From: Thermodesulfobacteriota bacterium | GTDB taxonomy: Bacteria; Desulfobacterota; Desulfobacteria; Desulfobacterales; C00003060 | DNA: 64,000 bases | Direction of reading: 5' to 3' | Assembly (NCBI GenBank): GCA_034189385.1 | Contig: JAXHVD010000003.1 | Location: forward strand, 142,104-206,103 | In this document: piece by piece, positions 9,350 through 63,639 of the stretch | How the letters are laid out: every line of letters starts with the position of its first letter | Position numbering within the stretch: position 1 is the stretch's first letter | Notes under the pieces: generated by a model | What the model was told of the DNA's origin: nothing | The model's database searches: none | The model's input: the letters and a program-made list of their open reading frames with translations, nothing else | Translations under genes and position numbers: made by a program

Positions 9350-10417
9350 CTAAATATTGATGGCTTCTACGATCAAATCCCCGACCTCGGCTGTGGAATG
9401 GCCCATCTGGCCTGCCCCCACGCCCTTCAGCTCGTCTCGCAACACCTTGGCTACGCCCCTTTCAACCATCTGGGCAGCATCGGGCTCTCCAAGGGTTTCG
9501 AGCATGAGTTTGGCAGCCAGAATGGCTCCAATAGGATTGATCACATTCTTTCCCGCATACTTGGGAGAAGACCCCCCTATGGGCTCGAACATGGAGACCC
9601 CTTCGGGGTTGATGTTTCCGCCTGCGGCCACGCCCATGCCGCCCTGAAGCATGGCGCCAAGGTCCGTAATAATATCACCGAACATGTTTTCCGTAACCAC
9701 CACATCAAACGATTCAGGGTTTTTGATCATCCACATGCACAAGGCGTCCACGTGCATATAGTCGGTCTCAATATCAGGGTATTCCTCTGCCACCTCCTTG
9801 AAGGTGCGCTCCCAAAGGTCAAAGGTATAGGTCAAGACATTGGTCTTTCCACAGAGGGTGACCTTTTGGGCCCCATTACGCGCTTTGCATACCTCAAAGG
9901 CGTAGCGGATACACCGCTCCACCCCCATGCGTGTGCTGATAGACTCCTGAATGGCCACCTCGTTGGGGGTTCCCCGTCTCAAGATGCCCCCAGCGCCTGC
10001 ATAGAGGCCCTCTGTATTCTCACGGACCACCACAAAGTCTATCTCCTCAGGCCCCTTGTCCTTAAGGGGGGTCTCCACACCCGGATAGAGCTTGATGGGT
10101 CTGAGATTGACGTACTGATCCAACTCAAAGCGAAGCCTAAGGAGCACCCCCTTTTCCAGTATGCCCGGGGGCACCCCTGGATCACCAATGGCGCCAAGAT
10201 ATATGGCGTCACATCCCCTCAATGCCTCCAGGACACCATCGGAAATGGTCTCGCCTGTCTTGTTGTAGTGTCTGGCACCCAGGTCAAAATCATGAAAGGC
10301 GAGTCTGAAACCGTTTCTTTTGGAAACCGCCTCAAGGACCTTCAGCCCCTCGGTGACCATCTCGGGACCCGTGCCATCTCCCGGTACCACAGCTATCTTA
10401 TACGCTCTTTCAGTCAT
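9350..10417 (-). CDS. leuB: 3-isopropylmalate dehydrogenase family
   Basis: Contains [24 protein letters not shown] and MFGDIITDL. The leuB-asd neighbourhood is conserved. Confidence 0.85.
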
Positions 10418-39715: not shown

Positions 39716-40948
39716 TCAACGAGAGGCCGCATCGCTTTTAAAGGCATCGACGTTCTCTATGTGCGCTTCTTCCTCGGTGATGGTCGTAAGGGGCGGATCA
39801 TCAGCGATATCCATCCCCGGCACGTAATCAAAGACTCCCGTAAGCTCCCTGTTTACCATCTGGTAGAGCCTGGTCAGGGGAATTTCCATAGGACACACAT
39901 CTTGACACTGCCCGCAATTGACACAGGAGTCTGCCACATGAGCCAATCTGATTAAAGGAAACATGATATGGGGCGGCGTTTCTCCAGCTTGCACAAGATC
40001 TCTTGATGGCTCCAGGTAACAGTCCTGACAGTAACAGATGGGACACACATCCCTGCAACCAAAGCACTTGATGCACCTGTCAAGATATCTTAGCCAGTAT
40101 TGCAATCGATCCTCGTAGGGAAGCCATCTTAGGACATCCAGGTCCTTTTCTTGCCAGGTCTGGGCCAATTCAACGGCCTCTTGGTCTTCTTGTTCCCTTT
40201 CCTTTAAGGCTTCCTGATCAGGCGGCTCCGCGTGAAGGGCACCCGCTTCCAAGGCCTCTTCCATCAGGTTGGAGCCTTTCTCCGAGCATACTTCTATGAA
40301 CGTAGCCTGTTGGCCCTTTGTGCCCCACTTGCCACAAGCCAGATCAGCCATCCGAGGAATATTGAAGGCGCACCGCCTACAATTTTCTCTTCTGCCATAT
40401 CCCTGTTCCTCTAGCTCCTTTAGATCCCTTTCTTTTTTGCTCCCATCTGCGAGCGTGATGACAAGTTTTTTTGAATCAAGCTCCTCGCCCACCACGTCCT
40501 CAGGGTTGACCTGATATGCCTCTGAAATCATTCTTCTGGCAACGCCTGGCATCAATGTGCCCGTGCAGTTCAGGCCTATTAAGAGGAGATTCTCGGTATT
40601 GATTTGTCTCCTTTTCGCTAGCTCTATGATGGCACGGCAGTCACAGGGCTTGCAGGTCACTGCCACCTTCAGGTCTTGGGCACCGTTTAGATACTCCCTT
40701 ATCTCTTTGGCTACATTCACTGGAGCAACGTGCAGGGTCCCAGCACAGGTGATGACTTCGTCGGGATTCGATATGAGAGACACCACTCCATCATATCTGT
40801 TTCCATCTCTTTTTCGGACCGCCAATACGGCATCTACAATCTTACGCTCAAGGGCAAACTTCAGCAACGCAGTGACTGCACCACCTGATGCGCCCTTAGA
40901 CCGAATTTGCTCGTCAGTGGACCAAGCAAGATACATGTCGCCTTTCAT
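39716..40948 (-). CDS. FrhB/FdhB-family (F420-hydrogenase/dehydrogenase beta-like) Fe-S flavoprotein, putative formate dehydrogenase beta subunit
   Basis: Contains SKGASGGAVTALL, GLNCTG and ferredoxin motifs CIKCFGCRDVCP and CVNCGQCQDVCP. Its start is adjacent to the fdhA stop. Confidence 0.75.
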   Translation of the reverse strand: MKGDMYLAWSTDEQIRSKGASGGAVTALLKFALERKIVDAVLAVRKRDGNRYDGVVSLISNPDEVITCAGTLHVAPVNVAKEIREYLNGAQDLKVAVTCKPCDCRAIIELAKRRQINTENLLLIGLNCTGTLMPGVARRMISEAYQVNPEDVVGEELDSKKLVITLADGSKKERDLKELEEQGYGRRENCRRCAFNIPRMADLACGKWGTKGQQATFIEVCSEKGSNLMEEALEAGALHAEPPDQEALKEREQEDQEAVELAQTWQEKDLDVLRWLPYEDRLQYWLRYLDRCIKCFGCRDVCPICYCQDCYLEPSRDLVQAGETPPHIMFPLIRLAHVADSCVNCGQCQDVCPMEIPLTRLYQMVNRELTGVFDYVPGMDIADDPPLTTITEEEAHIENVDAFKSDAASR

Positions 40949-42978
40949 TATGATACCTTCTCTACCTTCACTGCACAGAACTTGAACTCCGGCATCTTAG
41001 ACGGAGGGCCTGCACAGGGTCCTGTCAAGACGTTTGGTGCGCATTCTGAAAAATGCCAAGGCACAAATATCAGGCCTTTCCTAATGTCTTCTGTTACCCT
41101 AGCCACTGTCTCTATCGTGCCTCTTCTGGATGTTAATCTCACCTGGTCTCCGTCTTGTATGGAGAGGGCCTGGGCATCTTCAGGGTTTATCTCTGCAAAT
41201 CCATGGGGCAGCTCATTGTTCAGGCGCCCAGTTCGTCTGGTCATGGTGCCTGAATGAAAATGGAATATCACCCTGCCATTTGTGAATATGTAAGGATACT
41301 CCTCATCTGGCACCTCCAAAGGGGGAGTGTATTCTGCAACCTGGAATTGTGCAAGACCGTCTGCGGTGGGGAATTTGCCAACAAACATGACCTCCGTCCC
41401 AGGATGATCCTCTGTGGGGCATGGCCATTGAATGCCGCTGGGATTTTTGAGCCTTTCATAGGTAATCCCCTTGTATTGAGGCACACATTTCCTGATTTCC
41501 TCAAAAATATCAGCCGGGCTCTGAAAACCAAAGGCCGCCTCAAAACCCATCCTCTTTCCCAATTCACAGAAAATGTCCCAATCCGGTCTTGCATCACCCG
41601 GCGGCGCCACGGCCTTGTAGAGCCTCTGAACCCTTCTATCTACCCCGGTCATGGTCCCGTCCTTTTCCACGGACGTCGCTGCAGGGAGCACAATGTCAGC
41701 CATTTTTGCCGTTTCTGTCATAAAGATATCCTGGACGACCAAGAAATCTTTGCTTTTCAGGGCCTGCCTGACGCTTGTCGTATCTGGCGCAGCCGACATG
41801 GGATTCGCCCCCACGATGTATAAGACTCTGCATTTTCCCACCATGTCCATGTAAGTCATTCCAGGGGTTGAAGGCAGATCCTTGACTCCCCAGAGGTCTT
41901 CAAAACGCCTGGCTGTTTCCTCATTCACCTTTTGAAATCCAGGGTAGAAAACTGGCAAGGGCCCCATGTCCCCAAAGCCCTCACCATTGGCATGACCCCT
42001 CAGGGGGTTTACGCCAGTACCCGGCCTTCCATAGTTTCCCGTCATGAGTGCCAAGTCCACCAAAGCCCTGATGTTCTCTATGCCTGCACCATGCTGGGCA
42101 ATGCCTGCATTGTATAAGATACAGGCTTTTTCGGCCTTCCCGTACATGAGTGCCGCCTCTTTGATCACATCAAGGGGGATCTCCGTGATGCGCTCTATTT
42201 CACGCAGATCCAGACTCTGCAAATAGCTCTTCAGGTCCTCAAATCCTTTTGTCCTCTCTTCTATGAACCCTTTATCCTCTAGCCCCTCATCCAAGATGAG
42301 CTTCATCATGCCGTTGACCAGGGCATTGTCCGTCGCAGGGTAGATCTGCAAGTACAGGTCTGCAAGGTTTCGAGCCGTGATCGTCCTTCGGGGATCTGCA
42401 ACGATCACCTTGGCCCCTTTACGCTTTGCCCGTATGATCCTGCGGGCAATGATGGGATAGGTTTCCTGGAGGTTGGGACCGGCCACAAAGATGCAATCCG
42501 CCTGCTCAATACTGATAGTGGACGTTGGCATCACGCCTGAGCCCACTGTGGAAAGCAAGGCGGGCACTGAGGTAGAATGGCAGAACCTGGAGGCATTATC
42601 CATGTTGTTTGTCTTCTTAACGACCCTGACAAACTTCTGAATGACATAGAGATCTTCGTTTGTACACTTTGCAGAATTGATGAAGCCCACCTCATCGGAA
42701 GCCGTGCTGCCCAATTTGTCTGCGATCACCGAAAGGGCAGCATCCCAGGAGGTCTCCGCAAAGACACCGTCTCGTTTTACTAACGGCCTTACCAGCCTTT
42801 GATCACTCGTTGAACAGGCATGGGCGTTTCTTCCTTTCTGGCAGTTTTTGCCCTCACATACGGGATGCCCCTTCCACGGCTCCATGCCCACCAACTCGCC
42901 GTCTTTTACTACCAAGTAGATGCCACATCCGCAGCCGCAGTAAGGGCAAATAGTCGGTACGTGTTCAATGGATGTCAT
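40948..42978 (-). CDS. fdhA: formate dehydrogenase catalytic (molybdopterin) subunit, Cys-type
   Basis: The N-terminal 4Fe-4S motif is CPYCGCGCG. The active-site region is NASRFCHSTSV, with Cys where Sec-type FDH enzymes have U. The C-terminus has a MopB/molydop-binding domain. Confidence 0.85.
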   Translation of the reverse strand: MTSIEHVPTICPYCGCGCGIYLVVKDGELVGMEPWKGHPVCEGKNCQKGRNAHACSTSDQRLVRPLVKRDGVFAETSWDAALSVIADKLGSTASDEVGFINSAKCTNEDLYVIQKFVRVVKKTNNMDNASRFCHSTSVPALLSTVGSGVMPTSTISIEQADCIFVAGPNLQETYPIIARRIIRAKRKGAKVIVADPRRTITARNLADLYLQIYPATDNALVNGMMKLILDEGLEDKGFIEERTKGFEDLKSYLQSLDLREIERITEIPLDVIKEAALMYGKAEKACILYNAGIAQHGAGIENIRALVDLALMTGNYGRPGTGVNPLRGHANGEGFGDMGPLPVFYPGFQKVNEETARRFEDLWGVKDLPSTPGMTYMDMVGKCRVLYIVGANPMSAAPDTTSVRQALKSKDFLVVQDIFMTETAKMADIVLPAATSVEKDGTMTGVDRRVQRLYKAVAPPGDARPDWDIFCELGKRMGFEAAFGFQSPADIFEEIRKCVPQYKGITYERLKNPSGIQWPCPTEDHPGTEVMFVGKFPTADGLAQFQVAEYTPPLEVPDEEYPYIFTNGRVIFHFHSGTMTRRTGRLNNELPHGFAEINPEDAQALSIQDGDQVRLTSRRGTIETVARVTEDIRKGLIFVPWHFSECAPNVLTGPCAGPPSKMPEFKFCAVKVEKVS

Positions 42979-43411
42979 GAGCGCCTTCTCTCTCTATCCT
43001 TTGTGACAGAGGGTTTGGTCCAATGCCTCTTGCCTCTTCTACAAAGTCCCTGACCAATTGCGCAAATTGCGGACCCTCCGATGCGGATACCCAGGCCAGG
43101 CGCAATCTGGCCGGATCGATACCCACACATTCCAGCAATTTCTTCGTCATCAAGACCCGTCTTCTTACGTGCAGATTACCTTCCAGGTAATGACATTCAC
43201 CCGGATGTCATCCCCCCACAAGCACGGCATCTATGCCCTGAGTCAGTGCCTCCAAAATCATGACAGGATCAATTCTCCCAGTACACATGACCCGGATCAC
43301 CCGGATGTTGGGGGGATATTGGAACCTGGAAACGCCAGCCAGATCGGCTCCGGCGTAAGAACACCAGTTGCACAGAAAGGCTATTAATTTGGGTTCAAAT
43401 GAACTTGACAT
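42965..43411 (-). CDS. mvhD: MvhD/VhuD-like (methyl-viologen-reducing hydrogenase delta) protein with selenocysteine (TGA at 43208-43210)
   Basis: ORFs 43208..43444 and 42965..43153 are in one frame. The joined context is [25 protein letters not shown], compared with the conserved GCHxGDCHY motif. The start is ATG 43411 or 43444. Confidence 0.8.
43175..43191 (-). promoter_or_regulatory. SECIS-like hairpin after the mvhD UGA
   Basis: Minus strand: AUUACC-UGGAA-GGUAAU, a 6-bp stem with a GG-containing loop, starting 16 nt after the UGA. Confidence 0.45.
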
Positions 43412-43516
43412 TGTCAGAAACCCCCGTCTTTCTCCTAAGGCCATGTAGAATAGGCTGAAAGGTGGACCTTGAAGAAGGGAACGTTTTTTCTGCTGCTTTT
43501 GGATTTCAGCTTTTCT

Positions 43517-46500
43517 CTAAACAACAGCATGAATTTGTGCCCTGATTTGATGTTGACTAAAATGACACATATCAACGGCTTTTGACGGACAGCTCGCAGC
43601 ACAAAGGCCGCAACCCTTACAGGATGCAGTAATGTTTTCAGCCTTCATTTCACCATGAAGCTCCACTAGGTGGATGGCATCGAAGGGACACACCCTTTCA
43701 CAGATGCCGCATCCATTGCACATATCCGTATTCACCACAGATACAATGGGCTCGATCTCCACTGCATCTTTCATTAAGATATTTGCAGCCCGGGCAGCAG
43801 CGGCTTTGGCCTGGGCAATAGACTCCTCAATCGGTTTAGGATATTGACAAAGCCCTGCCAAGAACAGGCCTTGAGTGGCAAAATCAACGGGCCTGAGCTT
43901 CATATGGGCCTCCAAGAAGAAGCCTTCTTCGGTGGTGGACACTTTATAGAGTTTGGAAAGGGCCATGTTGTCATTTGGTAAAATGGCAGTGGCAAGGCAG
44001 ATCATGTCTGGAAGGATTTCAAGGGGTCTTTGCAACACGTGGTCCGTAATCCTCAGCTTGAGTCTGCCATTTTTCCTCTCAACCGTAGGTTCATTTCCCA
44101 GGTTGTAGCGAATGAACAGCACGCCTTTGGCTCTGGCCTCTGTGTACAACTCCTCCCTGTCCCCAAAGGTCCTGATATCCCGATAGAGGATATATATACG
44201 CATATGGGGATTGAGCCGTTTCAGGGCCAACGCACTGACCATAGAATGGGTGCAGCAAACCTTACTACAATAGGGTCTTTCAGGTATTCTGGATCCTACG
44301 CACTGGATGAAGACAACGCTCTTGGCGTTGCTGATCCGTTTACTACGGCCCACGATCTCTTGATCAAGTTCCAGGGGCAGCAATACATCTGGGTCTCTTC
44401 CATATAGATATTCCCTGGGCTTATAGGGTTTGCCGCCAGTCGTCATGATGACTGCCCCGTGCTGCAATTCTGTCTCTTTGCCCTCCTCGTCAAGGAGCGT
44501 GGAGGAAAACCCTCCCACAAAACCAGAGGCGTCCTTGATGGTTGTCCGAAGCCAAAGAGTGATCAATGGATGCTCACGGACCTTTTTGATGAGGTCTTCT
44601 ACATAAGCCCTTATATCTTCGCCTTTATAGGTGGTGTCAAGATGGAGGGCCTGACCGCCCAGTCTATTCTCTTTTTCGACGAGATCGGTCTTGAACCCTT
44701 GCTCAGCCAGACTTAAAGCGCTCACCATGCCTGCCACGCCCCCACCGATCACCAACCCCTGGTGGTTGACCGGTACAGATATGTCCGCCAGCGGCCTGAT
44801 GAGCCTTGCCTTGGCCACAGCCATTCTGACGAGGTCTTTGGCCTTTTTGGTAGCTGCATCCGGCTGTTCCATGTGGACCCAGGAGCATTGATCACGGATA
44901 TTTGCCATCTCAAAGGTGTATTTATTCAAACCGGCCTCGCGGAGTGTTTCTCTAAACAGGGGCTCATGGGTCCTTGGCGTGCAGGAGGCAACGACCACCC
45001 GGTTAAGGTCATATTCTTTGATGTGTTCCCTTATCCTGTTTTGGGTATCCTGGGAGCAGGTGAAAAGATTTCTATCTGCTACGACGACATTGGGAAGGGT
45101 CCGCGCATATTCAGTGACTTCAGGGACGTTGACCACGCCCCCAATATTGATCCCTCAATGGCAAACAAAGACGCCTATGCGCGGTTCCTGACCAAGGATC
45201 TCTTTTTCAACAGGATACTCCTTTTTCTTCACCAGCGTATTTCTTGCCGGCGCCAGGAGGCCCATGGCAGAATCGGCTGCAGCACTCGCCTCCATGACCG
45301 TACCTGGGATGTCCTTTGGTCCTTGAAATGCTCCGCACACATAGACCCCTGGCCTTGAAGTCTCTACAGGAGAAAGGCACTGCGTCTTTGCAAAAAGGTG
45401 GTTATCCAGCTCTATATGGAGCCGCTCAGCCAAAGCTTCAGCCTTGGCAGGAGGCATGAGGCCAATGGAAAGGACCACCATGTCAAATACTTCCTCTTTC
45501 CTCTCGCCTGTTTCACTGGCATAGACCAGCTTGAGGTCCCCACTGTCTGCCACGGGCTCTATGGAGTGTATCCTTGACCTGATAAACCGGACACCAAATT
45601 CATCCTTGGCCCGGTTATAGTACTTCTCAAAATCTTTGCCGTAGGTCCGCATATCCATGAAGAAGATGGCTGTATCTAATGGCAACGAGCTGTGTTCCTT
45701 GGAAATGACGGCCTCTTTGATGGCGTACATGCAGCACACAGCAGAGCAGTACCCTTGGTCACATTGGTTTATATTCCTTGAACCCACACATTGAAGCCAA
45801 GCGATCTTTTTCGGTTCTTTTTCGTCAGACGGGCGCACAAGGTGGGCCTTGTAAGGACCGGAGGCACTCAGAATACGCTCGAATTCCATGCTCGTGACCA
45901 CGTTGGGAAAGCGGCCATGCTGATAGAGATCATCGCCTGAAGGATCGTATGGCTCAAAACCTGGGGCCAGGATGATGGACCCAACATTTAGTTCGACTGT
46001 TTCATCTTCTTGAGAGTGATCGATGGCATCAGCAGCGCAAAACGCAGTACATATCTTGCATCCACCGGTCTTGAAGTGCATGCAGTATTCACGGTCGATT
46101 GCCGGCGCCTTTGGCACGGCCTGAGGATAGGGGATGTACACCGGTTTTCGTCCGATAAGCCCCATGTCATACTCAGAGGGAATAGGTTCAACGGTATGTT
46201 TGGTAATATCTTTTAGCTTGATGTGGCCAGTGGGACAAACCGACGCGCAAGCTCCGCAGGCCATACACAGTTCGGTCTGAATATGGAAAGGGGTATCCAC
46301 TCTCATATCCACACCCCTGCCGGTCAGGGTGATGGCACTGTTTCCCATCCTCTCGCAAACACGGACACAAAGACCGCAGAGGATGCAATCATCGTCCCTC
46401 TTCTTAAACCGCGGTTCCTTGATCCCATATCGCGCTGCCAGCTCCTTGACCGTAGGCACGTTCGGACAACGAGCAAGGAGGAGTTCCACGATCAGTTTTC

Positions 46501-46753
46501 GCCCCTCATGGACTGCATCGGTCTCCGTGCGAACCTCCATCCCTTCCTTGATGGGGTAGTTACATGCCGTGACGAAATTGGTCTTACGGCCATCAAAAAC
46601 CTCCACCGTACAAAGACGACACATCCCCGCAGGCCCAAGGGCCTTATGGTAGCATAAGGTGGGAATCTCGACCCCGTATCGTTCGGCCACCTGAAGGATG
46701 TATTCTCCTTCTTCTCCCTGGACGTCTTTTCCATTCAGCTTAAAATGTACCAT
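43517..46753 (-). CDS. hdrA: about 1078-aa fusion of a NuoG-like 2Fe-2S/4Fe-4S module, a partial HdrA module and a complete HdrA-like module, with selenocysteine (TGA 45155-45157)
   Basis: ORFs 45155..46753 and 43517..45136 share a frame. The junction reads [42 protein letters not shown], compared with the HdrA CHCGxNI motif. The N-terminus has LCYHKALGPAGMCRLCTVEV. GGGVAG FAD sites and terminal ferredoxin motifs are present. Confidence 0.8.
45123..45141 (-). promoter_or_regulatory. SECIS-like hairpin after the hdrA UGA
   Basis: Minus strand: GGGGCGU-GGUCA-ACGUCCC, a 7-bp stem with one G-U pair and a GGUC-containing apical loop like the E. coli fdhF SECIS loop. It begins 13 nt after the UGA. 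Confidence 0.6.
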
Positions 46754-46873
46754 GGATTACTCCCTGTTAACGCGCTGTTGCCCAAATCGCTTTTCGCTTT
46801 GGCTAAAACCTTTTTTGACAAATCTAAAGCTCACTCCAGGCGATGTCAAAACTCGCCCTTTTGGCTCTGCAAC

Positions 46874-48775
46874 TCATTCTATACAGATGGCGTTGAACTT
46901 ACAGGCATTGTAACAGATGCCGCACTTGATGCATTTCTCCTGGTCTATGTGATGGCATTTCTTCTTTTCACCGGTGATGGCCTCCTGCGGACATTTGAGT
47001 GCGCAGAGATGACAGCCGTTACACAGAGCTTCATCAACTTCGTAATGAAAAAGGGCCTTGCAGACACCTGCGGGGCACTTCTGATCCTTGATGTGGGCCT
47101 CGTACTCATCTCGGAAATAGAGGAGCGTCGTTAACACCGGATTGGGGGCTGTTTTGCCTAGTCCGCACAGGGAAAACCTCTTGATCATGGCAGCCAGCTC
47201 CTGAAGGAGTCTGATGTCGCCCTCCCGGCCCTTTCCCTCGCAGATATCACCCAGGATTTCTGCCATCTGGGTAATCCCTTCACGGCAGGGCGTGCATTGA
47301 CCACATGATTCGTTCTTGAGAAAATCCAGGAAGTATTTTGCAATGTTGACCATGCAGGTGTCCTGGTCCATGACGATCATACCGCCCGAGCCCATGATCG
47401 AGCCAAGCTCGCTGAGCTTCTGGTAGTCTACCGGGGTATCGAGGTACTGTTCAGGGATGCAGCCACCGGAAGGCCCCCCTGTCTGAACAGCCTTGAATGC
47501 CTTTTTCTTCGGAATGCCGCCGCCTATATCAAAGACGATCTCTCGCAAGGAAATGCCCATGGGGACTTCTACCAAGCCGGTATTTTTCACCTTCCCCACG
47601 AGGCTAAAGACCTTCGTCCCTTTGCTGTGCTCCGTGCCGATGTTGCCGTACCACTGGGCACCCTTTAAGAGGATCACCGGGACATTGGCATAGGTCTCAA
47701 CGTTATTCAGGTTGGTTGGTTTTTCCCTGAACCCTTTTTCCACAGTATGCACATATTTGGCCCTGGGTCTTCCCACTTGACCTTCCAACGAAGCCATCAA
47801 GGCCGTTGATTCACCACAAATAAAGGCCCCTGCCCCAGTGGAGATCTTGATGCGGAAACCAAAATCAGTCCCCCCTATATGGTCACCAAGCAACCCATAG
47901 GCCTCTGCCTGCTTGATGGCTGTGACCAGGCGCTTAACCGCCAACGGGTATTCATGCCGCACATAAATGAAGCCTTGATGGGAGCCAATGGCCCGTGCTG
48001 CAATCAACATCCCTTCCAGGACACTGTGGGGGTCGCCTTCCAGAATACTCCTATCCATGTAGGCGCCCGGGTCGCCTTCATCGGCATTGCAGATGATATA
48101 TCTCTCACCCTTCAGTCTTGCACAACTTTCCCATTTTATTCCTGTTGGAAAGCCAGCACCACCGCGACCCCTTAACCCCGATTCCTTGATGGTCTTAATA
48201 ATCTCAGGGGGGTCGCCTTCCAACAGGCATCGCATAAAGGCTAGGTACCCGCCTTTGGCGATGTACTCTTCGATGCTATCGGGGTCAATATAGCCACAAT
48301 TGCGCAAGGCGATTTTTGTCTGTTTACTGTAAAAGGGGACATCCTCCAAGAAGGGGATCCCCTCGATGGGTGCTGTCTCGGCAAGGGGGTTTTCCATGTC
48401 TTCTTCTAATAGGGAACGAGGATCGCGCATTTGGGCTAGGATCCACTTTTTATTGAAATCGCCTTGGATGTAGCCTTCAATGGCGTCTAGGATCTTCTCC
48501 TTGGAAAGGTGCCTGTAAACCACTCTCGGCCGCCCCTTTCCGAAGATTTCGACCAAGGGTTCTTCCTGACAGAAACCCAGACAACCGGTCTTGTGGATCT
48601 CAATGCCAGGGTCCTCTGGAAATGCCTCTAAGGCCTTTTCAAAGGAGGCCTTTGCACCGGCTGCGATGCCACAGGAGGCCATTCCTATGTTCACCGCGAT
48701 GCCTTCTGGGTGGTATAGCCTGTTGCTGTAGTCCTGCCTGATCTCTTCCAGGTCTTTAATAGACCCCACTTGCAT
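46874..48775 (-). CDS. NuoF/HoxF/HydB-like NAD(H)-binding FMN Fe-S flavoprotein with N-terminal thioredoxin-like domain and C-terminal 2x[4Fe-4S]
   Basis: Contains GLRGRGGAGFPTGIKW, ESCGQCTPCREG and the C-terminal motifs CNGCHLCALKCP / CIKCGICYNAC. ATG 48775 is preferred over the longer track ORF. Confidence 0.85.
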   Translation of the reverse strand: MQVGSIKDLEEIRQDYSNRLYHPEGIAVNIGMASCGIAAGAKASFEKALEAFPEDPGIEIHKTGCLGFCQEEPLVEIFGKGRPRVVYRHLSKEKILDAIEGYIQGDFNKKWILAQMRDPRSLLEEDMENPLAETAPIEGIPFLEDVPFYSKQTKIALRNCGYIDPDSIEEYIAKGGYLAFMRCLLEGDPPEIIKTIKESGLRGRGGAGFPTGIKWESCARLKGERYIICNADEGDPGAYMDRSILEGDPHSVLEGMLIAARAIGSHQGFIYVRHEYPLAVKRLVTAIKQAEAYGLLGDHIGGTDFGFRIKISTGAGAFICGESTALMASLEGQVGRPRAKYVHTVEKGFREKPTNLNNVETYANVPVILLKGAQWYGNIGTEHSKGTKVFSLVGKVKNTGLVEVPMGISLREIVFDIGGGIPKKKAFKAVQTGGPSGGCIPEQYLDTPVDYQKLSELGSIMGSGGMIVMDQDTCMVNIAKYFLDFLKNESCGQCTPCREGITQMAEILGDICEGKGREGDIRLLQELAAMIKRFSLCGLGKTAPNPVLTTLLYFRDEYEAHIKDQKCPAGVCKALFHYEVDEALCNGCHLCALKCPQEAITGEKKKCHHIDQEKCIKCGICYNACKFNAICIE

Positions 48776-48788
48776 CGCCTGAAACCCC

Positions 48789-49286
48789 TTAGTGATATTC
48801 ATCCAACACCTTTTGTATGTTTTCCTGGCTGACCCGGCTATAGACGTCTTCATTGATCTTGACGACTGGTCCAAGACTACAGCATCCAATGCAGCGCACA
48901 GGCTCGAGAGTGAAGCGCATATCTTCCGTTGTTTCTCTGGCGCCCACATGGAGAATCTCCTGGATCCTTTCCCACAGCCTTGCCCCGCCCCTTACATGGC
49001 AGGCCGTCCCCAGACAGACAGAGATGATGTTTCTGCCTTTGGGGACCAGACTGAAGCTGCTGTAGAACGTACCGACAGCATAGATGAGACTGATCGGCAC
49101 CCCTATCTTCTCAGAAAGATAGGTCAAAGATGCCTGGGGCAAGTGGTTATACTGACGCTGAATGGCCTGGAGAATCATGATAAGATTCTCTTTGTCGTCG
49201 TGGAATTCCTCATCTATGATCCGATCAAGTTCCATGTAATCGATCTCAACGGTTTGCTCCATCGTAGATAGCGCTATGTCAGTCAT
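48789..49286 (-). CDS. NuoE/HoxE-like 2Fe-2S thioredoxin-fold subunit
   Basis: Contains VCLGTACHVRGG...CIGCCSLGPVV. Confidence 0.9.
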   Translation of the reverse strand: MTDIALSTMEQTVEIDYMELDRIIDEEFHDDKENLIMILQAIQRQYNHLPQASLTYLSEKIGVPISLIYAVGTFYSSFSLVPKGRNIISVCLGTACHVRGGARLWERIQEILHVGARETTEDMRFTLEPVRCIGCCSLGPVVKINEDVYSRVSQENIQKVLDEYH

Positions 49287-49517
49287 ATAGGTGTCTCCCT
49301 CACAGGAAAAAGGTCTATTCCCTAGGTGTTGAGAATAATTAGAAATGGCGTACTCGAGGGTGGACTGCAGGTTATTGAAAACTCACCCCTGGCTCCATGG
49401 ATAACGAGCAACAGGAAGGCCTATTTGTTTTCCGTGCACTTCTCTTTCCAAGACTCCGATACGCCATACGCGACGTTTGCCCGTTGGCGAGTCCTTGTGG
49501 ACTCGCAACACCAAGAC

Positions 49518-49919
49518 TTATCCATCCATAACCGCTTGATTGGTCACCGGGCAGTTCTCCACACAAAGGCCGCACCCAATACAACGGCTCAAGTCGATAC
49601 TCCGGGCGCGCTTCTTCACCTTTACTCTGAAATTGCCAGCAGAGCCATCCACCGATTCGATGTCGGCATAGGTGATGATTTCGATATTCAGGTGGCGACC
49701 GCATTCCACCAACTTTGGCGACATGATACACATGGAACAGTCATTGGTGGGGTATGTCTTATCTAGTTGGGACATCTTGCCGCCAATGGCTGGCGTATCT
49801 TCAAGTAGATAGACATAAAAGCCAGCATCGGCGAGATCAAGGGCAGCTTGGATGCCACCGATGCCACCACCTACCACCAACACGGCACCGACTTTGTCTT
49901 CTTGTTGAGACGTTGCCAT
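49518..49919 (-). CDS. stand-alone HdrA N-terminal FAD/ferredoxin fragment (133 aa)
   Basis: Contains VLVVGGGIGGIQAALDLADAG, LDKTYPTNDCSMCIMSPK and CIGCGLCVENCP. It ends with TAA, not TGA, so no Sec read-through is expected. Confidence 0.7.
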   Translation of the reverse strand: MATSQQEDKVGAVLVVGGGIGGIQAALDLADAGFYVYLLEDTPAIGGKMSQLDKTYPTNDCSMCIMSPKLVECGRHLNIEIITYADIESVDGSAGNFRVKVKKRARSIDLSRCIGCGLCVENCPVTNQAVMDG

Positions 49920-50232: not shown

Positions 50233-51276
50233 TCACATGGGCTTGACGTGGGATAGTCTCTCGCTCATGTTCTGTTCATAGAACTGCGTGGGCTGAAGCT
50301 CTTCATACTCGTTCCTTGAGGCGAGGTATTTCCGTATATCCAGGCAGAGGTGACATTTGGAAACGTAACCTTTGCTTTTCTCTCCATAACCCCTTTCTAA
50401 GGCAAAAGAAAACAGCCCTCTCATGTCTTCATGGACCAAATAGTTCAAGACAGGGCGGTTTTCCAGATCGAGTCCCTCTCTGAGGAGGCGATCCAACTCA
50501 AACCAACTCCCTAAGGAGATCCCGCCGCAGTAGCCGGGCATGAGATTGCCGTAATTGTCAAAATGGTTGTGCCAGTTGCGCAGCATCGTTGGCTGGCAGG
50601 GCACGCGAAAGAACCCTTTGGCCCGGTAGCTGGGGTAAAGGTCCTTTAATTGATAGGCAGCGCGGCCCATTAGAAAAAGCTCCACCCTGTGGGACACCGA
50701 CTCCCCGCCGGTGAGGTTTTGATAGTCCTCAATGGAAAGCCTGCCCCTAATGCCCAGCTTTTTAAAAAGACGATAATACTCCAGCTGATAGACGATCACA
50801 TCGGCCCCAAAGACCTCCAGGCTGATTTGAATGCACCGGTCTGTTCTTTCAAAGGGGACATACTCGGCATAGTAAGGATTTACCGAGATCAAGATCCCCC
50901 TGAGCCCCTTTTCCTTGAGGGCCTGGAGCCGTTCCCGCGTCAGGTCGTCGCTCTTGCACCAGAAGCAGTTTGTTTCCACAAACGTGGACGGGATCTTCAA
51001 TGCTGCTGCAATCTCAACGGCCTTCAGCAACAGCTCAACATTTAAGAAAGGCTCTCCACCTGTGAAATGGAGCCCGTGGTTCAAGCTCATATGTCGCCGA
51101 CCCTGTGGGCTGGGTTTGATCACCTTGGCCAGCTGGGGAAGAGATTGTTCCAGCTGCTCCACCGTTATCCAATCGGGGGTCCATTTCGGCGAGCAGGCGT
51201 ACATGCAGTGGCGGCAGGAAGCAGGGCACTTGTAGGAAAGGATCAGGCCGCCGGAGATGGGAGGAGGTATTTTCAT
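50233..51276 (-). CDS. radical SAM protein of unknown function
   Basis: Contains LSYKCPASCRHCMY (CxxxCxxC), FTGGEPF, and a C-terminal CHLC. Confidence 0.8.
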   Translation of the reverse strand: MKIPPPISGGLILSYKCPASCRHCMYACSPKWTPDWITVEQLEQSLPQLAKVIKPSPQGRRHMSLNHGLHFTGGEPFLNVELLLKAVEIAAALKIPSTFVETNCFWCKSDDLTRERLQALKEKGLRGILISVNPYYAEYVPFERTDRCIQISLEVFGADVIVYQLEYYRLFKKLGIRGRLSIEDYQNLTGGESVSHRVELFLMGRAAYQLKDLYPSYRAKGFFRVPCQPTMLRNWHNHFDNYGNLMPGYCGGISLGSWFELDRLLREGLDLENRPVLNYLVHEDMRGLFSFALERGYGEKSKGYVSKCHLCLDIRKYLASRNEYEELQPTQFYEQNMSERLSHVKPM

Positions 51277-51279
51277 CCC

Positions 51280-51687
51280 TCAAAACGCTTTATAGATCCG
51301 CGCAAGGGGATGTCCCTGGGCCTGGATGGTCAGATCGTTGAAATAGCCGTAGGGTGTTTGAAAGGCTTGGTAGCCGGCAGTCTCCAAGCGTTGCTGGGCC
51401 CTGTCGAAAAGGGCTTTAGCGTCTTCGGGGCCGGCCTTATCGTCTCCCAGATGGGTAAAGGAGTGCAGGATAATGATCGTTGTCTCCCATTTTCTCGCAA
51501 GCCATTTCGCGTTCTTCACCAGTTTGGTTTCTGCAGCATTTTTGCCTTCCACATCTTTCGGCTCCACGTGAATGAATGCCACCACCGCTTTTTTTTGGAG
51601 ATCTGCTGCGGCATCTGGAGCGTCATCCAACGTTTTCATGGCCGGGTTCCATGCAAAGGTGTCGCAATACCAAAAGAGGACTCTCAT
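51280..51687 (-). CDS. free-standing homologue of the archaeal ThrRS N-terminal editing domain (DTD-like fold)
   Basis: Contains MRVLFWYCD..., AVVAFIHVEPKD, ILHSFTHLGD, and TPYGYFNDLTIQAQGHPLARIY. These compare with the Pyrococcus ThrRS-ED blocks MRVLLIHSD, VLVAFISVEK, PFAHLSS and PFGYYKAF..CKGHPLSE, which I am recalling from memory. Confidence 0.65.
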   Translation of the reverse strand: MRVLFWYCDTFAWNPAMKTLDDAPDAAADLQKKAVVAFIHVEPKDVEGKNAAETKLVKNAKWLARKWETTIIILHSFTHLGDDKAGPEDAKALFDRAQQRLETAGYQAFQTPYGYFNDLTIQAQGHPLARIYKAF

Positions 51688-51713
51688 CTCTTCTCCCTAC
51701 AGGCAGGCTTTTT

Positions 51714-52376
51714 CTATGGCAATGGCCTGCCGCAATGTCTGCACACTTCAGCCTCTTTCTCAATGACCTCCGCACAAAAGGGACACTCTCTGGTCTCGTT
51801 GATGTCGTGAATCCTATTGATTCCCTGGCGCACTTGGGCGACAATCCGCTCATCGTGAAATGTGAAGTCCAGCATCGGTTCGATGGCCTCGGCAAGGCCC
51901 AATTCTCCAATGAGGGCAGCGGCGCGCATGCGGACCTTATAGTAAAGGTCCCGGTCAAAGAGACTGGACAGGAGGCCCTTTAGATCGGCCGCCCCGAAAA
52001 GCTCCAGCAGCCGTTGAACGGCGGGATCATCGTCGGTGCCTCTCGCCTTATCCACCGCGATGTCGGCCTCATCGATGATGCCCCACTGGTTGGACGAATA
52101 GACGGCCCTGGCCGCTGTCCGGTCCGAATCTGGATAACAGATGCACCGGTAAGAACAGGGCCGGCCGTAAGTCTCTTGCATGTGGTCCCAGCCCTCTGCA
52201 TAGAGGGGGCATGCGTCGTTGCCGCAGATAAAGAGGTACGGAGACCCCCATCGGCCACCGTTTACGAAACCGGACTGCCCACAGGCCATAATCTTCATCT
52301 CTTGTCCGCAATAAGGACAGACCGGCCTGTCTGAAAAAATCATCTTCTCATAGACATCAGCTTTGGTAAGGACCAT
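51714..52376 (-). CDS. zinc-ribbon / HEAT-repeat / zinc-ribbon protein
   Basis: Contains CPYCGQEM...CGNDAC, the HEAT-like stretch VRMRAAALIGELGLAEAIEPML, and the C-terminal motif CPFCAEVIEKEAEVCRHCG. ATG 52376 follows GGAAGGAG. Confidence 0.6.
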   Translation of the reverse strand: MVLTKADVYEKMIFSDRPVCPYCGQEMKIMACGQSGFVNGGRWGSPYLFICGNDACPLYAEGWDHMQETYGRPCSYRCICYPDSDRTAARAVYSSNQWGIIDEADIAVDKARGTDDDPAVQRLLELFGAADLKGLLSSLFDRDLYYKVRMRAAALIGELGLAEAIEPMLDFTFHDERIVAQVRQGINRIHDINETRECPFCAEVIEKEAEVCRHCGRPLP

Positions 52377-52517: not shown

Positions 52518-53336
52518 TCACCTCACCGTGGCGGTGGCTGTGTCATCAAAAGGATTTGTTCTCATGGCAAGCGAAAAGAGATAGGGATAATTCTCTTTCA
52601 GGTATTTCATGTAGTCTAACCAATGCCGGACTAAAAGCGCGTAAACCCTTCTCACATCTCCGGCCAGATGGGCGACGTCACTGCTGAGCAAATGGGCAAG
52701 ATCTTCTCTGTGCATCAACTCGTCTTTTAAGTGGAAAATGGCCCGGAGGAGTTTTGTAAAGGACTCACTTTCGAGCAGGACCGGATTTTCCAAGAGCCTC
52801 AGCAAGAGGTCCTTTTGTCTACCCAGGAAGTTCCGCAATCTTTCAAGATCAAGCTTTTCCGGGTCAATACTGTAATCATAATGAGTGAGACGTTGGCTTG
52901 CGGCCGAAAAATCTTTCTCTGACCAGTTTCCAGACACGACTAACGCCGCCTTGGTCGTGTCCGGATTACGATCACACCTTGAGAAGTCCGCCAAGAGTCT
53001 ATTGCCGATTTCACTGAAGAATAGCCCTGAAACCATGTTCAGCTTTTGATCCCTGAGTGTCTGCTCCCGCCTGTTGAGCATGATCTCAGTCGCACTGGCG
53101 ATGACCCCCAGGAAGGTCCCCACCCCTGCCACAATCAACACGATGGCAAGTCCCTTGCCGACCGGTGTTGCAGGATGGATGTCGCCGTAGCCCACCGTCG
53201 CTACAGTGACAAGGCTGAAATAGAGGGCGTCTCCGGGTGACAATCCCTCTGTCAGCGAAAAGCCCACAGTGCCTAACGCCAGCACTGCCACCGTGAGAAG
53301 GAGAAAAACGCGAAGTCGGAATGACGCTTGGCCCAT
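52518..53336 (-). CDS. two-TM potassium channel with cytoplasmic C-terminal domain
   Basis: The selectivity filter is LVTVATVGYGDIHP. Confidence 0.85.
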   Translation of the reverse strand: MGQASFRLRVFLLLTVAVLALGTVGFSLTEGLSPGDALYFSLVTVATVGYGDIHPATPVGKGLAIVLIVAGVGTFLGVIASATEIMLNRREQTLRDQKLNMVSGLFFSEIGNRLLADFSRCDRNPDTTKAALVVSGNWSEKDFSAASQRLTHYDYSIDPEKLDLERLRNFLGRQKDLLLRLLENPVLLESESFTKLLRAIFHLKDELMHREDLAHLLSSDVAHLAGDVRRVYALLVRHWLDYMKYLKENYPYLFSLAMRTNPFDDTATATVR

Positions 53337-53380
53337 CAACACCTCACCTCTTTCAAGGAGCAGCACCTCAGCAGATGCCG

Positions 53381-61597: not shown

Positions 61598-62632
61598 GTG
61601 GATTCCATCACCCAAATCGCGTTAGGTGCCGCTGTTGGCGAGGCCACACTGGGCCGGCAAGTGGGAAGACGTGCATGGTTGTGGGGCGCCCTCTGTGGGC
61701 TCTTTCCAGACCTGGACATACTTTTTCCATTCAGCGATCCCGTCAAGGCCTTTACCTATCACAGGGGCCCCAGCCACTCCCTCTTTGTCCTCGTGGCCCT
61801 GACACCGCTCTTTGTCTGGTCCATACGCAAGTGCCACCCCGAAACGGCCCCATACAGAAACCGTTGGTATGCCTTGGTCTTTTTGGCCTTTACAACGCAC
61901 GTTCTGCTCGATTGCCTCACGGTCTATGGGACACAGATCTTCTGGCCTATTGCCACGCCGCCTGCCATGTGGTCCACCATCTTCATCATCGATCCTCTCT
62001 ACTCCGCCCCCTTGTTCTTTGGGGTCCTGGCGGCCCTTGTCTCCTCGCGCAAGAGGTCCTGGGGGCACCTCGCCAACACGGTCTGTATCGTCGTAAGCGC
62101 TGTCTACCTCTTATGGACCGTGGGCGCAAAGACCTACGTGACAGGCCTTGCACAGGCCTCTTTAAGACGACAAGAGGTGAGCTACGAGAAAATGCTGACC
62201 ATCCCTTCTCCGTTCAACACCTTGTTGTGGCGCGTCCTGGCCATGGATGACAAGGGATACTACGAAGGGTTCTATTCCCTCTTTGATCAGAGCAGGGATG
62301 TCCAGATGACCCATTACGCCAGCCATGGCAACCTCCTTGAAGACGTGGCCGATCACTGGCCCGTCAAACGGTTACAGTGGTTCACCCACGGTTTCTATGC
62401 TGTGGCGCGGTCTGTCGATGACATCATCATCAAGGACCTCAGAATGGGGATGGAGCCTTTCTATGTGTTTCAGTTCAAGGTGGGAGCCGTCGGCAACGGC
62501 CATGCCAACCCCACCAGGAACAGACAGGTCATGGATGAACGGGGTTGGGACCAACTGCGGTGGGTCTGGCAGCGCATATGGAAAGAGGACCCTGCCGTCA
62601 GGGGCAGGGAGCACCAAGAGGGCCTCAGGTGA
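61598..62632 (+). CDS. membrane-bound metal-dependent hydrolase (YdjM/YbcI, DUF457 family)
   Basis: Contains MDSITQIALGAAVGEA, FPDLD, and YHRGPSHSL...HVLLDCLT. Confidence 0.75.
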   Translation: MDSITQIALGAAVGEATLGRQVGRRAWLWGALCGLFPDLDILFPFSDPVKAFTYHRGPSHSLFVLVALTPLFVWSIRKCHPETAPYRNRWYALVFLAFTTHVLLDCLTVYGTQIFWPIATPPAMWSTIFIIDPLYSAPLFFGVLAALVSSRKRSWGHLANTVCIVVSAVYLLWTVGAKTYVTGLAQASLRRQEVSYEKMLTIPSPFNTLLWRVLAMDDKGYYEGFYSLFDQSRDVQMTHYASHGNLLEDVADHWPVKRLQWFTHGFYAVARSVDDIIIKDLRMGMEPFYVFQFKVGAVGNGHANPTRNRQVMDERGWDQLRWVWQRIWKEDPAVRGREHQEGLR

Positions 62633-63639
62633 CTCTGGTGGGATGATACTTCTTGATTTGGCAGGCCTGATGTGAGCCGCATGTGGCACAACCCCTTGGA
62701 TGGGTGCGACAACCTGCTGAAAAACCGTATGCACCAGCTAGTCGGGCACCTGGAAGTACGTACCGGTCCCACAGGGGCGTTGGCAAATGGACTGGCGTTG
62801 CTGAAATGTTTGGATGGCCGGACCAGTAGACACTTTCCAGGCCGGCATCCTTGGCCATTTTCACACAACGCTGCATGAGCCTTGTCGTTGCACCGGGGTG
62901 GCTCTCCAATACGAAGTTTGGTCTAAAAGCCAGAAAACAGACGGGCAAAGACCGATCAATGCCGGCAATGAAATCGGTTAACGGCTCGATCTCCCCTTCT
63001 GTGAGCTCCGGGATGACGACGATTCTGTATTCCCAGAGTTTGTCCCTTGCATCTCTTCCGATATGCTCGGCATTTCTGAGGATCGGCCTGGACGATGCCC
63101 CGGTCAGGGCCAGGTGGACCTCGTCATAATAGGCCTTCAGATCATAGGTGATGGATGTGGCAAAGGCGAGGACCCTCTCCAGGCTTTTACCCGTTGGTGT
63201 CCACATTCACCTTCGCAGCTGACGCCATGCCCCTGGCTTCTTCAACGACCTGTTCAATATAGGGGAGATGAATGGTCGGTTCCCCACCTGAAAAGGATAT
63301 CCTGTCGGCCCCTATGAGTCTTGCTGCAAAGGAGTCAAGGCCCTTTAAGGATGCTTCAGCCAGTGTGTTGGGCTCTTCATACCCTCTTTGGTCGTACCCG
63401 CTGTCTGGGTACTGAGAGGTTGTCCAGCTTTGACACTGCAGGCACTTGAGATTGCAGCCAGCCATGAATACCGTGTAGCTCGGCGGGGGCGCCATATGGA
63501 GGTGGGCGGCGCCTAAAACGGGCATGGTCATCTTGCACACCCCTGTCTCTCCTGCCAATCTGTTCACCCGGCATCGATGTTCGCAAAGCTCACAATTTTC
63601 GAACTCCTGAAGAGCATCCAGGTTGGTCACCTCCGTCAC
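62625..63639 (-). pseudogene. radical SAM activase-like protein (PflA/AmmeMemoRadiSam-like) interrupted by a 1-nt frameshift
   Basis: ORF 63187..63639 has CELCEHRC...GVC and AGCNLKCLQC, and ends ..AKVNVDTNG-TAA. ORF 62625..63206 continues the family sequence (..KSLERVLAFATSITYDLKAYYDEVHLALTG..). Deleting one G of GGG (63190-63192) joins them as DTNGKSLERV. Confidence 0.75.

Follow-up and report, generated by a model that had tools for sequence, protein, structure and literature searches.

A stand-alone relative of the archaeal threonyl-tRNA synthetase editing domain with a remodeled pocket, probably placed beside its neighbors by lineage-specific juxtaposition in Thermodesulfobacteriota

Archaeal threonyl-tRNA synthetases (ThrRS) carry an editing domain for Ser-tRNAThr, and the isolated domain works in trans (Ahmad 2015, PMC4491819). 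Here we describe a homologue of this domain (ED) and its two neighbors on the minus strand of a 64,000-nt stretch of contig JAXHVD010000003.1 from a Thermodesulfobacteriota bacterium (assembly GCA_034189385.1), referred to as the window. The neighboring genes encode a Zn-ribbon/HEAT protein and a radical S-adenosylmethionine (SAM) protein (rSAM). From the accounts of ED, rSAM, and Zn-ribbon/HEAT given below, we consider it likely that the three genes came to lie side by side in this lineage and do not constitute a dedicated three-gene system. The locus reveals no new multi-gene system. It points to a large, strongly constrained family of stand-alone proteins with a predicted DTD-like fold in anaerobic bacteria, in which the charge of the pocket is opposite to that of the archaeal Ser-tRNAThr editing site.

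The side chains that lie within 6 Å of the scissile bond in the archaeal N-terminal domain (NTD) of Pab are P80, F81, A82, H83, Y120, and K121, together with E134 of the other subunit. Glu134 binds the α-amino group of the substrate across the subunit interface, and the β-hydroxyl group of serine is fixed by the main-chain nitrogen of K121. Catalysis is RNA-assisted and was attributed to the 2'-OH of A76 of the tRNA. The Pab variant H83A was inactive and the exchange K121M severely compromised three archaeal domains, with the catalytic water being mispositioned, while the double variant Y120A/E134A was similar to the wild-type. DTD has a Met at the K121 position, yet it is an active deacylase (all PMC4491819). 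Like DTD and ATD, which are free-standing proteins of ~145 amino acids that deacylate aminoacyl-tRNA in trans, ED is free-standing and is predicted to adopt the DTD-like fold; it also shares with DTD a residue other than Lys at the K121 position. ED differs from DTD in scoring as PF08915, and the comparison with DTD rests on the literature and on this PF08915 assignment. The chiral selectivity of DTD is reported to depend on a cross-subunit Gly-cisPro motif.

Stand-alone relatives of the archaeal domain were defined as 'tRNA-Thr-ED' proteins by Mukai 2017 (mBio, PMC5424206, Text S1, Fig. S4, Data Set S1), who found them to be widespread in prokaryotes. The bacterial members include Deltaproteobacteria bacterium SG8_13, other Desulfobacterales, and Desulfovibrio. 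Residues contacting the aminoacyl-adenosine were described as conserved in this family, save the Glu (Mj Glu135), and the stand-alone proteins were proposed to hydrolyze aminoacyl- or hydroxyacyl-tRNAs (PMC5424206). The 2022 follow-up (PMC8762117) treats SepRS fusions, and the functional discussion in both papers was centered on SepCysS-associated archaeal members and SepRS fusions, which retain the serine-recognition residues. A full-text literature search by family names found no experimental characterization of a bacterial tRNA-Thr-ED. Some members are labeled 'threonyl-tRNA synthetase editing domain-containing protein' by NCBI.

The coordinates and spacings of the three genes, as reported in a first-pass annotation of the window, were reproduced:

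50233 to 51276, minus strand: rSAM gene, encoding a radical SAM protein of 347 amino acids (open reading frame (ORF), profile, and family evidence)
51277 to 51279, minus strand: junction between the ED and rSAM genes, 3 nt, TGA GGG ATG
51280 to 51687, minus strand: ED gene, encoding a stand-alone tRNA-Thr-ED of 135 amino acids (PF08915), with a predicted DTD-like fold
51688 to 51713, minus strand: intergenic spacer between the Zn-ribbon/HEAT and ED genes, 26 nt, with a GGGAG Shine-Dalgarno motif serving the ED gene
51714 to 52376, minus strand: Zn-ribbon/HEAT gene, encoding a protein of 220 amino acids in which a Cys-rich beta domain at the N terminus is followed by HEAT-like helical repeats and, at the C terminus, a zinc ribbon

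The identification of the middle protein as a homologue of the archaeal ThrRS editing domain was borne out by profile searches. ED matched PF08915 (tRNA-Thr_ED) over profile positions 1–136 of 137 (E=1.5e-35, 122.7 bits, cut-off 30.2). Among the solved domains, the best match was the P. abyssi ThrRS N-terminal editing domain (PDB 1y2q; E=1.8e-12, residues 1–132), and the solved M. jannaschii and A. pernix editing domains were matched as well, as were the N-terminal parts of the NCBIfam models for archaeal ThrRS and Ser-tRNA(Thr) hydrolase. Judged by these matches, ED is a genuine bacterial homologue of the archaeal domain, with which it shares the PF08915 family over its full length, about equal size, the equivalent of His83, and the FxHL, PxG(Y/W), and GHPLA motifs. 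By homology to the solved NTD structures, a DTD-like dimeric fold with a cross-subunit active site is predicted for ED, and the 3'-adenosine pocket is presumably common to both. ED differs in its bacterial host and in being stand-alone: its ORF of 135 amino acids lies between those of Zn-ribbon/HEAT and rSAM, and no ThrRS catalytic or anticodon-binding domain is fused to it. In its length, the lack of an anticodon-binding domain, and R130 at the equivalent of Mj Glu135, the window ED fits the bacterial type of Mukai 2017, and it is a new member of this family, which had already been cataloged bioinformatically. The Glu position is not conserved in either description, and the same hydrolysis is inferred in both. 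The earlier suggestion that bacteria would not be expected to have this kind of domain was therefore overstated, as stand-alone bacterial members were cataloged in 2017 (PMC5424206) and named by NCBI; the SG8_13 protein, our locus L019, is 71% identical to the window ED. SepRS or SepCysS genes were not recognized near the window ED or in the tallies of ED neighbors, though no search dedicated to these genes was made.

The pocket of ED is where it departs most clearly from the archaeal domain. The equivalents of Pab P80, F81, A82, H83, Y120, K121, and E134 are S76, F77, T78, H79, F116, N117, and R130. The GYFN motif (residues 114–117) aligns to Pab G118-Y119-Y120-K121, so that the Lys of the archaeal GYYK motif is indeed replaced, as the first-pass annotation had stated. 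Its hint at a changed substrate was reasonable, and a second, stronger change was found in the replacement of the amine-binding Glu by an invariant Arg. Hence, the seryl-pocket set of Tyr120, Lys121, and cross-subunit Glu134 (Pab numbering) is not retained in the window ED. Among 192 unique bacterial ED sequences, S76, F77, H79, L80, G114, and R130 (192/192) were invariant, and G125, P127, L128, and A129 of the GHPLA motif nearly so. Position 117 was occupied by Asn in 142 of these sequences, by Leu in 44, His in five, Ile in one, and Lys in none. The same trend was observed in 73 diverged full-length representatives, in which the Glu134 position was Lys (37) or Arg (29) in 66 of 73 and the motif LHSF(A/T/S)HL was found where archaea have YPFAHL; Lys at the K121 position was confined to a single archaeal-type sequence. 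Compared with the archaeal domain, Phe thus replaces Y120, Asn or Leu replaces K121, an invariant Arg replaces E134, and P80 and A82 have become Ser and Thr. By this alignment, the acid-to-base switch at the position that binds the α-amine is a more diagnostic change than GYYK to GYFN.

Since the pocket is remodeled family-wide (Glu to Arg, Lys to Asn/Leu, Pro80 to Ser, Ala82 to Thr), the natural substrate of ED is probably not Ser-tRNAThr. ED is most likely a trans-acting hydrolase of acyl-tRNA esters with a different substrate. In the mechanism proposed here from the archaeal structures, the ED homodimer would bind the acylated 3'-terminal adenosine (A76) of a tRNA and hydrolyze the ester bond with a water molecule activated by the 2'-OH of A76, the protein contributing mostly main-chain atoms as in the archaeal domain. 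Arg130, which is Lys or Arg in the wider superfamily, would take the place of the cross-subunit Glu, and a neutral or anionic α-substituent would be preferred. These residues suggest, as the substrate class, acyl-tRNAs or comparable 3'-esters in which a free cationic α-amine is missing or an anionic group is present, a proposal to which we give somewhat less than an even chance. Candidates within this class are N-blocked aminoacyl-, α-hydroxyacyl-, and acidic or phosphorylated aminoacyl-tRNAs, each of which, taken singly, is a good deal more speculative than the class as a whole. If a distinct class of acyl-tRNA is indeed hydrolyzed, this would be a new trans-editing activity in bacterial translation quality control. 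The invariant Arg130 provides a simple handle for probing the substrate, and the ED family remains a worthwhile biochemical target. For annotation, editing of Ser-tRNAThr should not be read into the name 'ThrRS editing domain' in the bacteria that carry ED.

The family is large and strongly constrained. At 90% identity, more than 950 clusters matched ED in the protein search, of which the best 120 were all ~135 amino acids long, and an exhaustive library clustered at 50% identity contained 422 ED-related clusters, the top matches being mostly stand-alone, ~135 amino acids long, and 26–65% identical. Across 17 sequences reaching down to 70% identity, 64 of the 135 ED columns were invariant. A scan with a narrow pattern and one genome per species detected close relatives in the genomes of at least 380 species. 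Nearly all of these are Desulfobacterales or related Thermodesulfobacteriota; the remaining species were a few Syntrophobacteraceae, Desulfatiglandales, and one Thermoanaerobaculales metagenome-assembled genome. A protein of 3588 amino acids (P0354) contains 15 separate stretches that match ED residues 44–83 (the ETKLVKNAKWLARKW...LHSFTHL region) and is possibly a repeat protein, or an artefact of assembly or gene calling.

The gene neighborhoods of ED were surveyed in 80 species-level loci (L numbers designate loci), for which the median flank was 10 kb to either side. A homologue of rSAM or Zn-ribbon/HEAT within 10 kb of ED was found by tblastn in none of them, and clustering and Pfam tallies of the immediate neighbors revealed no universal partner of ED. 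In five individually examined loci, the neighbors were all different. The commonest upstream neighbor was a same-strand RNase II/R (RNB) gene (19/71 loci); downstream, a YbaK-type tRNA_edit gene (PF04073) was present in 8 and an asparaginase-like gene in 7 of 79 loci. As judged by overlapping locus lists, these three neighbors appear to be co-located in one Desulfobacterales clade. Single loci adjoin genes for GlyRS-alpha or Leu/Phe-tRNA protein transferase. The neighbors of ED thus lend mild support to a tRNA- or RNA-related role and none to a link with rSAM.

The RNB gene lies upstream of ED in L034, L039, L053, L055, L056, L058, L060–L062, L070, L072, L075–L078, L081, L085, L086, and L088, with ED at about 10001–10405 where the flank is complete. 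Some of these loci also have a convergent gene 3' of ED, either YbaK-type (PF04073) or asparaginase-like. Of the conserved contexts of the family, the RNB-ED arrangement may be the most informative one. CxxCxxCC proteins (PF03692) and alpha/beta hydrolases of the dienelactone hydrolase (DLH) type recur beside ED in unrelated loci, namely L091:2065-3221 (CxxCxxCC and alpha/beta hydrolase), L005:6430-7227 (Olavius symbiont, CxxCxxCC), and L001:5125-5832 (Desulfosarcina alkanivorans, DLH), and DLH/Abhydrolase families were counted upstream of ED in ~4 of 71 loci. A radical SAM gene 2.5 kb from ED in the Olavius symbiont locus was rejected as a homologue of the window rSAM (BLASTP E=0.43).

The CxxxCxxC motif of rSAM given in the first-pass annotation is present as C17-x3-C21-x2-C24. 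It is invariant together with G73-G74-E75 (GGEP), and the protein scores just above the cut-off of PF04055 (34 bits, cut-off 29.5). Seven further cysteines (C28, C104, C107, C227, C250, C308, and C311) are invariant and, from the alignment, suggest auxiliary clusters. The family is large and well conserved, with 1949 search matches, and members annotated as Chloroflexota are ~65% identical. Its best characterized match is the peptide epimerase YydG (TIGR04078; PDB 8AI1-8AI6), and this similarity is restricted to the core (residues ~13–150), with 52.1 bits against an equivalog cut-off of 300 and a PDB profile E-value of 2e-5. rSAM and YydG are about equally long, and each has cysteines in its C-terminal part that could bind an auxiliary cluster; by sequence, however, the C-terminal half of rSAM is unrelated to YydG. 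The AlphaFold model of rSAM, based on a 16-sequence alignment, was poor (pLDDT 55.7, C-terminal half below 50) and was not used for a fold search. PADLOC defense models gave no match for ED or Zn-ribbon/HEAT, and the core of rSAM was only generically similar to pVip (E=1.4e-5); in the phage and defense-system libraries, nothing specific to any of the three proteins was detected.

A survey centered on rSAM covered 83 loci, in 72 of which the sequence extended far enough upstream to accommodate an ED gene, and revealed no conserved neighbor of the family and no precursor-peptide gene or other conserved neighbor related to ribosomally synthesized and post-translationally modified peptides (RiPPs). 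ED was found directly upstream of rSAM only in the window and in L008, L091, L092, and L112. The rSAM proteins of these five loci are at least 83% and the ED proteins at least 84% identical, indicating a narrow clade, and the tight spacing of the window is retained in the other four, with 3–6 nt in the clade. The genomic context is of three kinds, one in the window and L091, one in L008, and one in L092 and L112. In L009, the rSAM and ED genes are 4.2 kb apart with other genes between them. L090 encodes a 98%-identical rSAM without ED; the gene is preceded by a DUF6941 gene, its surroundings are SufS/SufE/SerB-like, and the homology of L090 to the window stops exactly at the start codon of rSAM, which suggests recombination at a gene boundary or two arrangements in one population. 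We propose that rSAM belongs to a separate, widely distributed family that usually occurs without ED and that it was brought 3–6 nt downstream of ED in one Thermodesulfobacteriota clade, where the two genes are probably co-transcribed.

Several side observations concern these loci. In L090:5982-7526 and L009:2257-3772, rSAM is preceded by a DUF6941 gene instead of ED, and L090 and L091 stem from the same metagenome (Ga0272444). In L008 (521-5282 and 10261-12370), the ED-rSAM pair lies beside mobile or defense-island genes (SLFN_AlbA_2/HATPase_c_4, DUF1156, and a DDE_3 transposase) and is followed by genes for endonuclease V and TrmO. The window contains a second radical SAM gene (62625-63531, minus strand), which is apparently split into two overlapping ORFs; the part at 63187-63531 has a CxxxCxxC motif and matches PF04055. 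The split gene resembles a PflA/AmmeMemoRadiSam-like radical SAM gene that adjoins the 340-amino-acid rSAM family in 7 of the 83 loci (e.g., L105:2225-3241).

Three points weigh against the account given so far. The retention of tight ED-rSAM spacing across three genomic contexts exceeds what a single accidental juxtaposition would leave. The hydrolase activity and the substrate class proposed for ED rest on homology and residue logic only. Furthermore, Ser/Thr discrimination in the archaeal domain survives the loss of the Tyr120 and Glu134 side chains (PMC4491819), and therefore side-chain changes may predict the substrate poorly in this fold.

The first of these points bears on a functional link between ED and rSAM specific to the clade, which we regard as unlikely. 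In this explanation, the two genes form a true two-gene module, in which, for example, rSAM modifies or epimerizes an aminoacyl or peptidyl substrate and ED hydrolyzes the resulting ester for product release or proofreading. Besides the adjacency at 3–6 nt in five loci, the TGA-GGG-ATG junction suggests translational coupling; its sequence fits both this and co-transcription of ED and rSAM. A thematic link, suggestive only, is that YydG is an L-to-D peptide epimerase and the ED fold is that of a D-aminoacyl-tRNA deacylase. However, the five loci, being from so narrow a clade, amount to roughly one evolutionary event, and the pairing is absent from all 80 species-level ED loci and from the ~70 other rSAM loci. 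The closest rSAM (L090) is without ED, and in L009 the genes are separated. The distributions also differ, as the rSAM family reaches Chloroflexota and the ED subfamily is almost confined to Desulfobacterales and relatives. Finally, the similarity to YydG is far below the equivalog cut-off and covers the core only. Of the two neighbors to which ED was called tightly coupled in the first-pass annotation, rSAM is adjacent to ED only in a narrow clade, and Zn-ribbon/HEAT is otherwise linked to Hdr/Nuo genes.

In a broader version, rather unlikely in our estimate, bacterial tRNA-Thr-ED proteins would be widespread, unrecognized trans-deacylases in which the invariant Arg or Lys that replaces the amine-binding Glu selects a non-canonical acyl-tRNA (N-blocked, α-hydroxyacyl, or acidic/phosphorylated aminoacyl), and the coupled rSAM of the window clade would act on the same substrate or in the same pathway. 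If so, these proteins would open a new branch of quality control in translation.

For ED itself, it might be argued that it is a conventional editing factor for Ser-tRNAThr, acquired from archaea and acting in trans to back up or replace the editing site of the host ThrRS. The clear homology to the archaeal Ser-tRNAThr editing domain is in its favor, as are the conserved His83 equivalent, the FxHL and GHPLA motifs, and the activity of the isolated archaeal domain in trans. We nonetheless give this explanation a low probability. Bacterial ThrRS enzymes already include an N2 editing domain. Y120, K121, and E134, which make contact with the seryl moiety or hold the water in place, are all replaced in ED, Arg130 is invariant, and K121M alone was severely compromising in three archaeal domains (PMC4491819).

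It is very unlikely, in turn, that ED has ceased to be a hydrolase and, as a pseudo-enzyme, binds a nucleotide or the 3' ends of tRNAs, perhaps in a regulatory role. In favor of this, ED has lost the Lys responsible for placing the catalytic water and has no conserved enzymatic partner, an RNase II/R gene being often adjacent. Against this, the active-site motifs LHSFTHL, TPYGYF, and GHPLARI are under very strong purifying selection, and DTD deacylates actively with a Met in place of this Lys (PMC4491819).

The third protein was described in the first-pass annotation as a double zinc-ribbon HEAT protein. A zinc ribbon was found at the C terminus (PF13248, E=2.5e-8) and a cluster of cysteines at the N terminus, the residues C20, C51, C201, C212, and C215 being invariant; the HEAT assignment is weaker, as the Pfam HEAT_2 score of 18.9 bits is below the cut-off of 27.7. 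The structure model (pLDDT 90.4) has an N-terminal Cys-rich beta module and helical repeats at residues 103–193. The best PDB matches of this helical region were alphaRep (HEAT-like), deoxyhypusine hydroxylase, and the HEAT-like domain of QueG, all weak (E≥0.03), and the top Foldseek matches of the protein were alphaRep proteins (probability ~1.0, TM ~0.3–0.5, E≥0.03). In the predicted model, the helical region superposes on HEAT-like repeat proteins (alphaRep / PBS-lyase HEAT-like, PF13646/PF03130). It differs from them in that the Pfam HEAT scores remain below their cut-offs and in that Cys-rich zinc-ribbon modules flank the helices. As a descriptive name for this architecture, 'Zn-ribbon/HEAT' is acceptable.

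The relatives of this protein and its genomic setting set it apart from the ED-rSAM pair. Two neighboring regions of the window are needed for the comparison:

43517 to 49919, minus strand: HdrA-like mini-ORF (133 amino acids), NuoE-like, NuoF-like, Fer2/Fer4/Pyr_redox, and HdrA-like genes, the presumed ancestral downstream neighbor of the Zn-ribbon/HEAT gene
52518 to 53366, minus strand: K+ channel-like gene (Ion_trans_2) located 5' of the Zn-ribbon/HEAT gene, a synteny that the window shares with L091 only

The Zn-ribbon/HEAT family is small and comprises 82 clusters, all from Thermodesulfobacteriota. In L170, the gene (72% identical) is followed by genes for an HdrA fragment, NuoE, NuoF, Fer2/Fer4, and HdrA, which are 79–91% identical to those of the window, without ED or rSAM. 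The gene of L171 (54% identical) adjoins HdrA and FlpD genes, again without ED or rSAM, and that of L172 (38% identical) is in another context. L091 has the gene order of the window, but a CxxCxxCC protein gene and an alpha/beta hydrolase gene (1.8 kb) separate Zn-ribbon/HEAT from ED; a UbiA-like gene follows rSAM. Because L170 combines Zn-ribbon/HEAT and Hdr/Nuo without ED and rSAM, the ED-rSAM pair looks like an insertion. Zn-ribbon/HEAT with hdr/nuo would be the older arrangement, and ED-rSAM would have been inserted between them in the lineage of the window.

That all three proteins form one new system for aminoacyl-tRNA or peptide-ester modification or proofreading, as had been put forward from their common strand and the 26-nt and 3-nt gaps, is most improbable and already largely refuted by synteny, because the trio recurs only in the near-identical L091, where 1.8 kb lie between Zn-ribbon/HEAT and ED, because Zn-ribbon/HEAT stands directly upstream of HdrA/NuoEF genes without the pair in L170 and L171 and in another context in L172, and because it is near ED in 0 of 80 loci and, apart from the window and L091, near rSAM in none of 83.

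Within the window, the three genes may still be expressed together. The Zn-ribbon/HEAT reading frame stays open to 52505; the ATG at 52376 is a sensible start that gives 220 amino acids, has the Shine-Dalgarno motif GGAAGGAG directly 5' of it, and agrees with the identical NCBI protein P0241 of 220 amino acids. Terminator-like motifs in the region were not in excess (6, compared to 4.1 ± 1.9 in shuffled sequence), and neither were promoter-like motifs. Of the terminator-like matches, two within the Zn-ribbon/HEAT coding sequence and one within that of rSAM were disregarded owing to weak stems. The Shine-Dalgarno motifs, the spacing, and the lack of an excess of terminator motifs fit co-transcription in the window. 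No tRNA genes or Rfam families were found in the window that would give an adjacent tRNA or riboswitch clue.

The mini-ORF at 49518-49919 (minus strand) corresponds to no more of an HdrA-like protein than the FAD-binding part at its N terminus with one 4Fe-4S motif and is kept as a separate ORF in L170 (91%) and L091 (95%). Selenocysteine read-through of its stop is unlikely, as no meaningful in-frame continuation follows. It is the first gene of a redox cluster at 39716-49919 (minus strand) with NuoE-like, NuoF-like, Fer2/Fer4/Pyr_redox, HdrA-like, molybdopterin oxidoreductase (formate-dehydrogenase-like), and FrhB/FdhB-like genes. The cluster looks like an electron-bifurcating Hdr-linked dehydrogenase, and the Zn-ribbon/HEAT protein might be one of its accessory factors.

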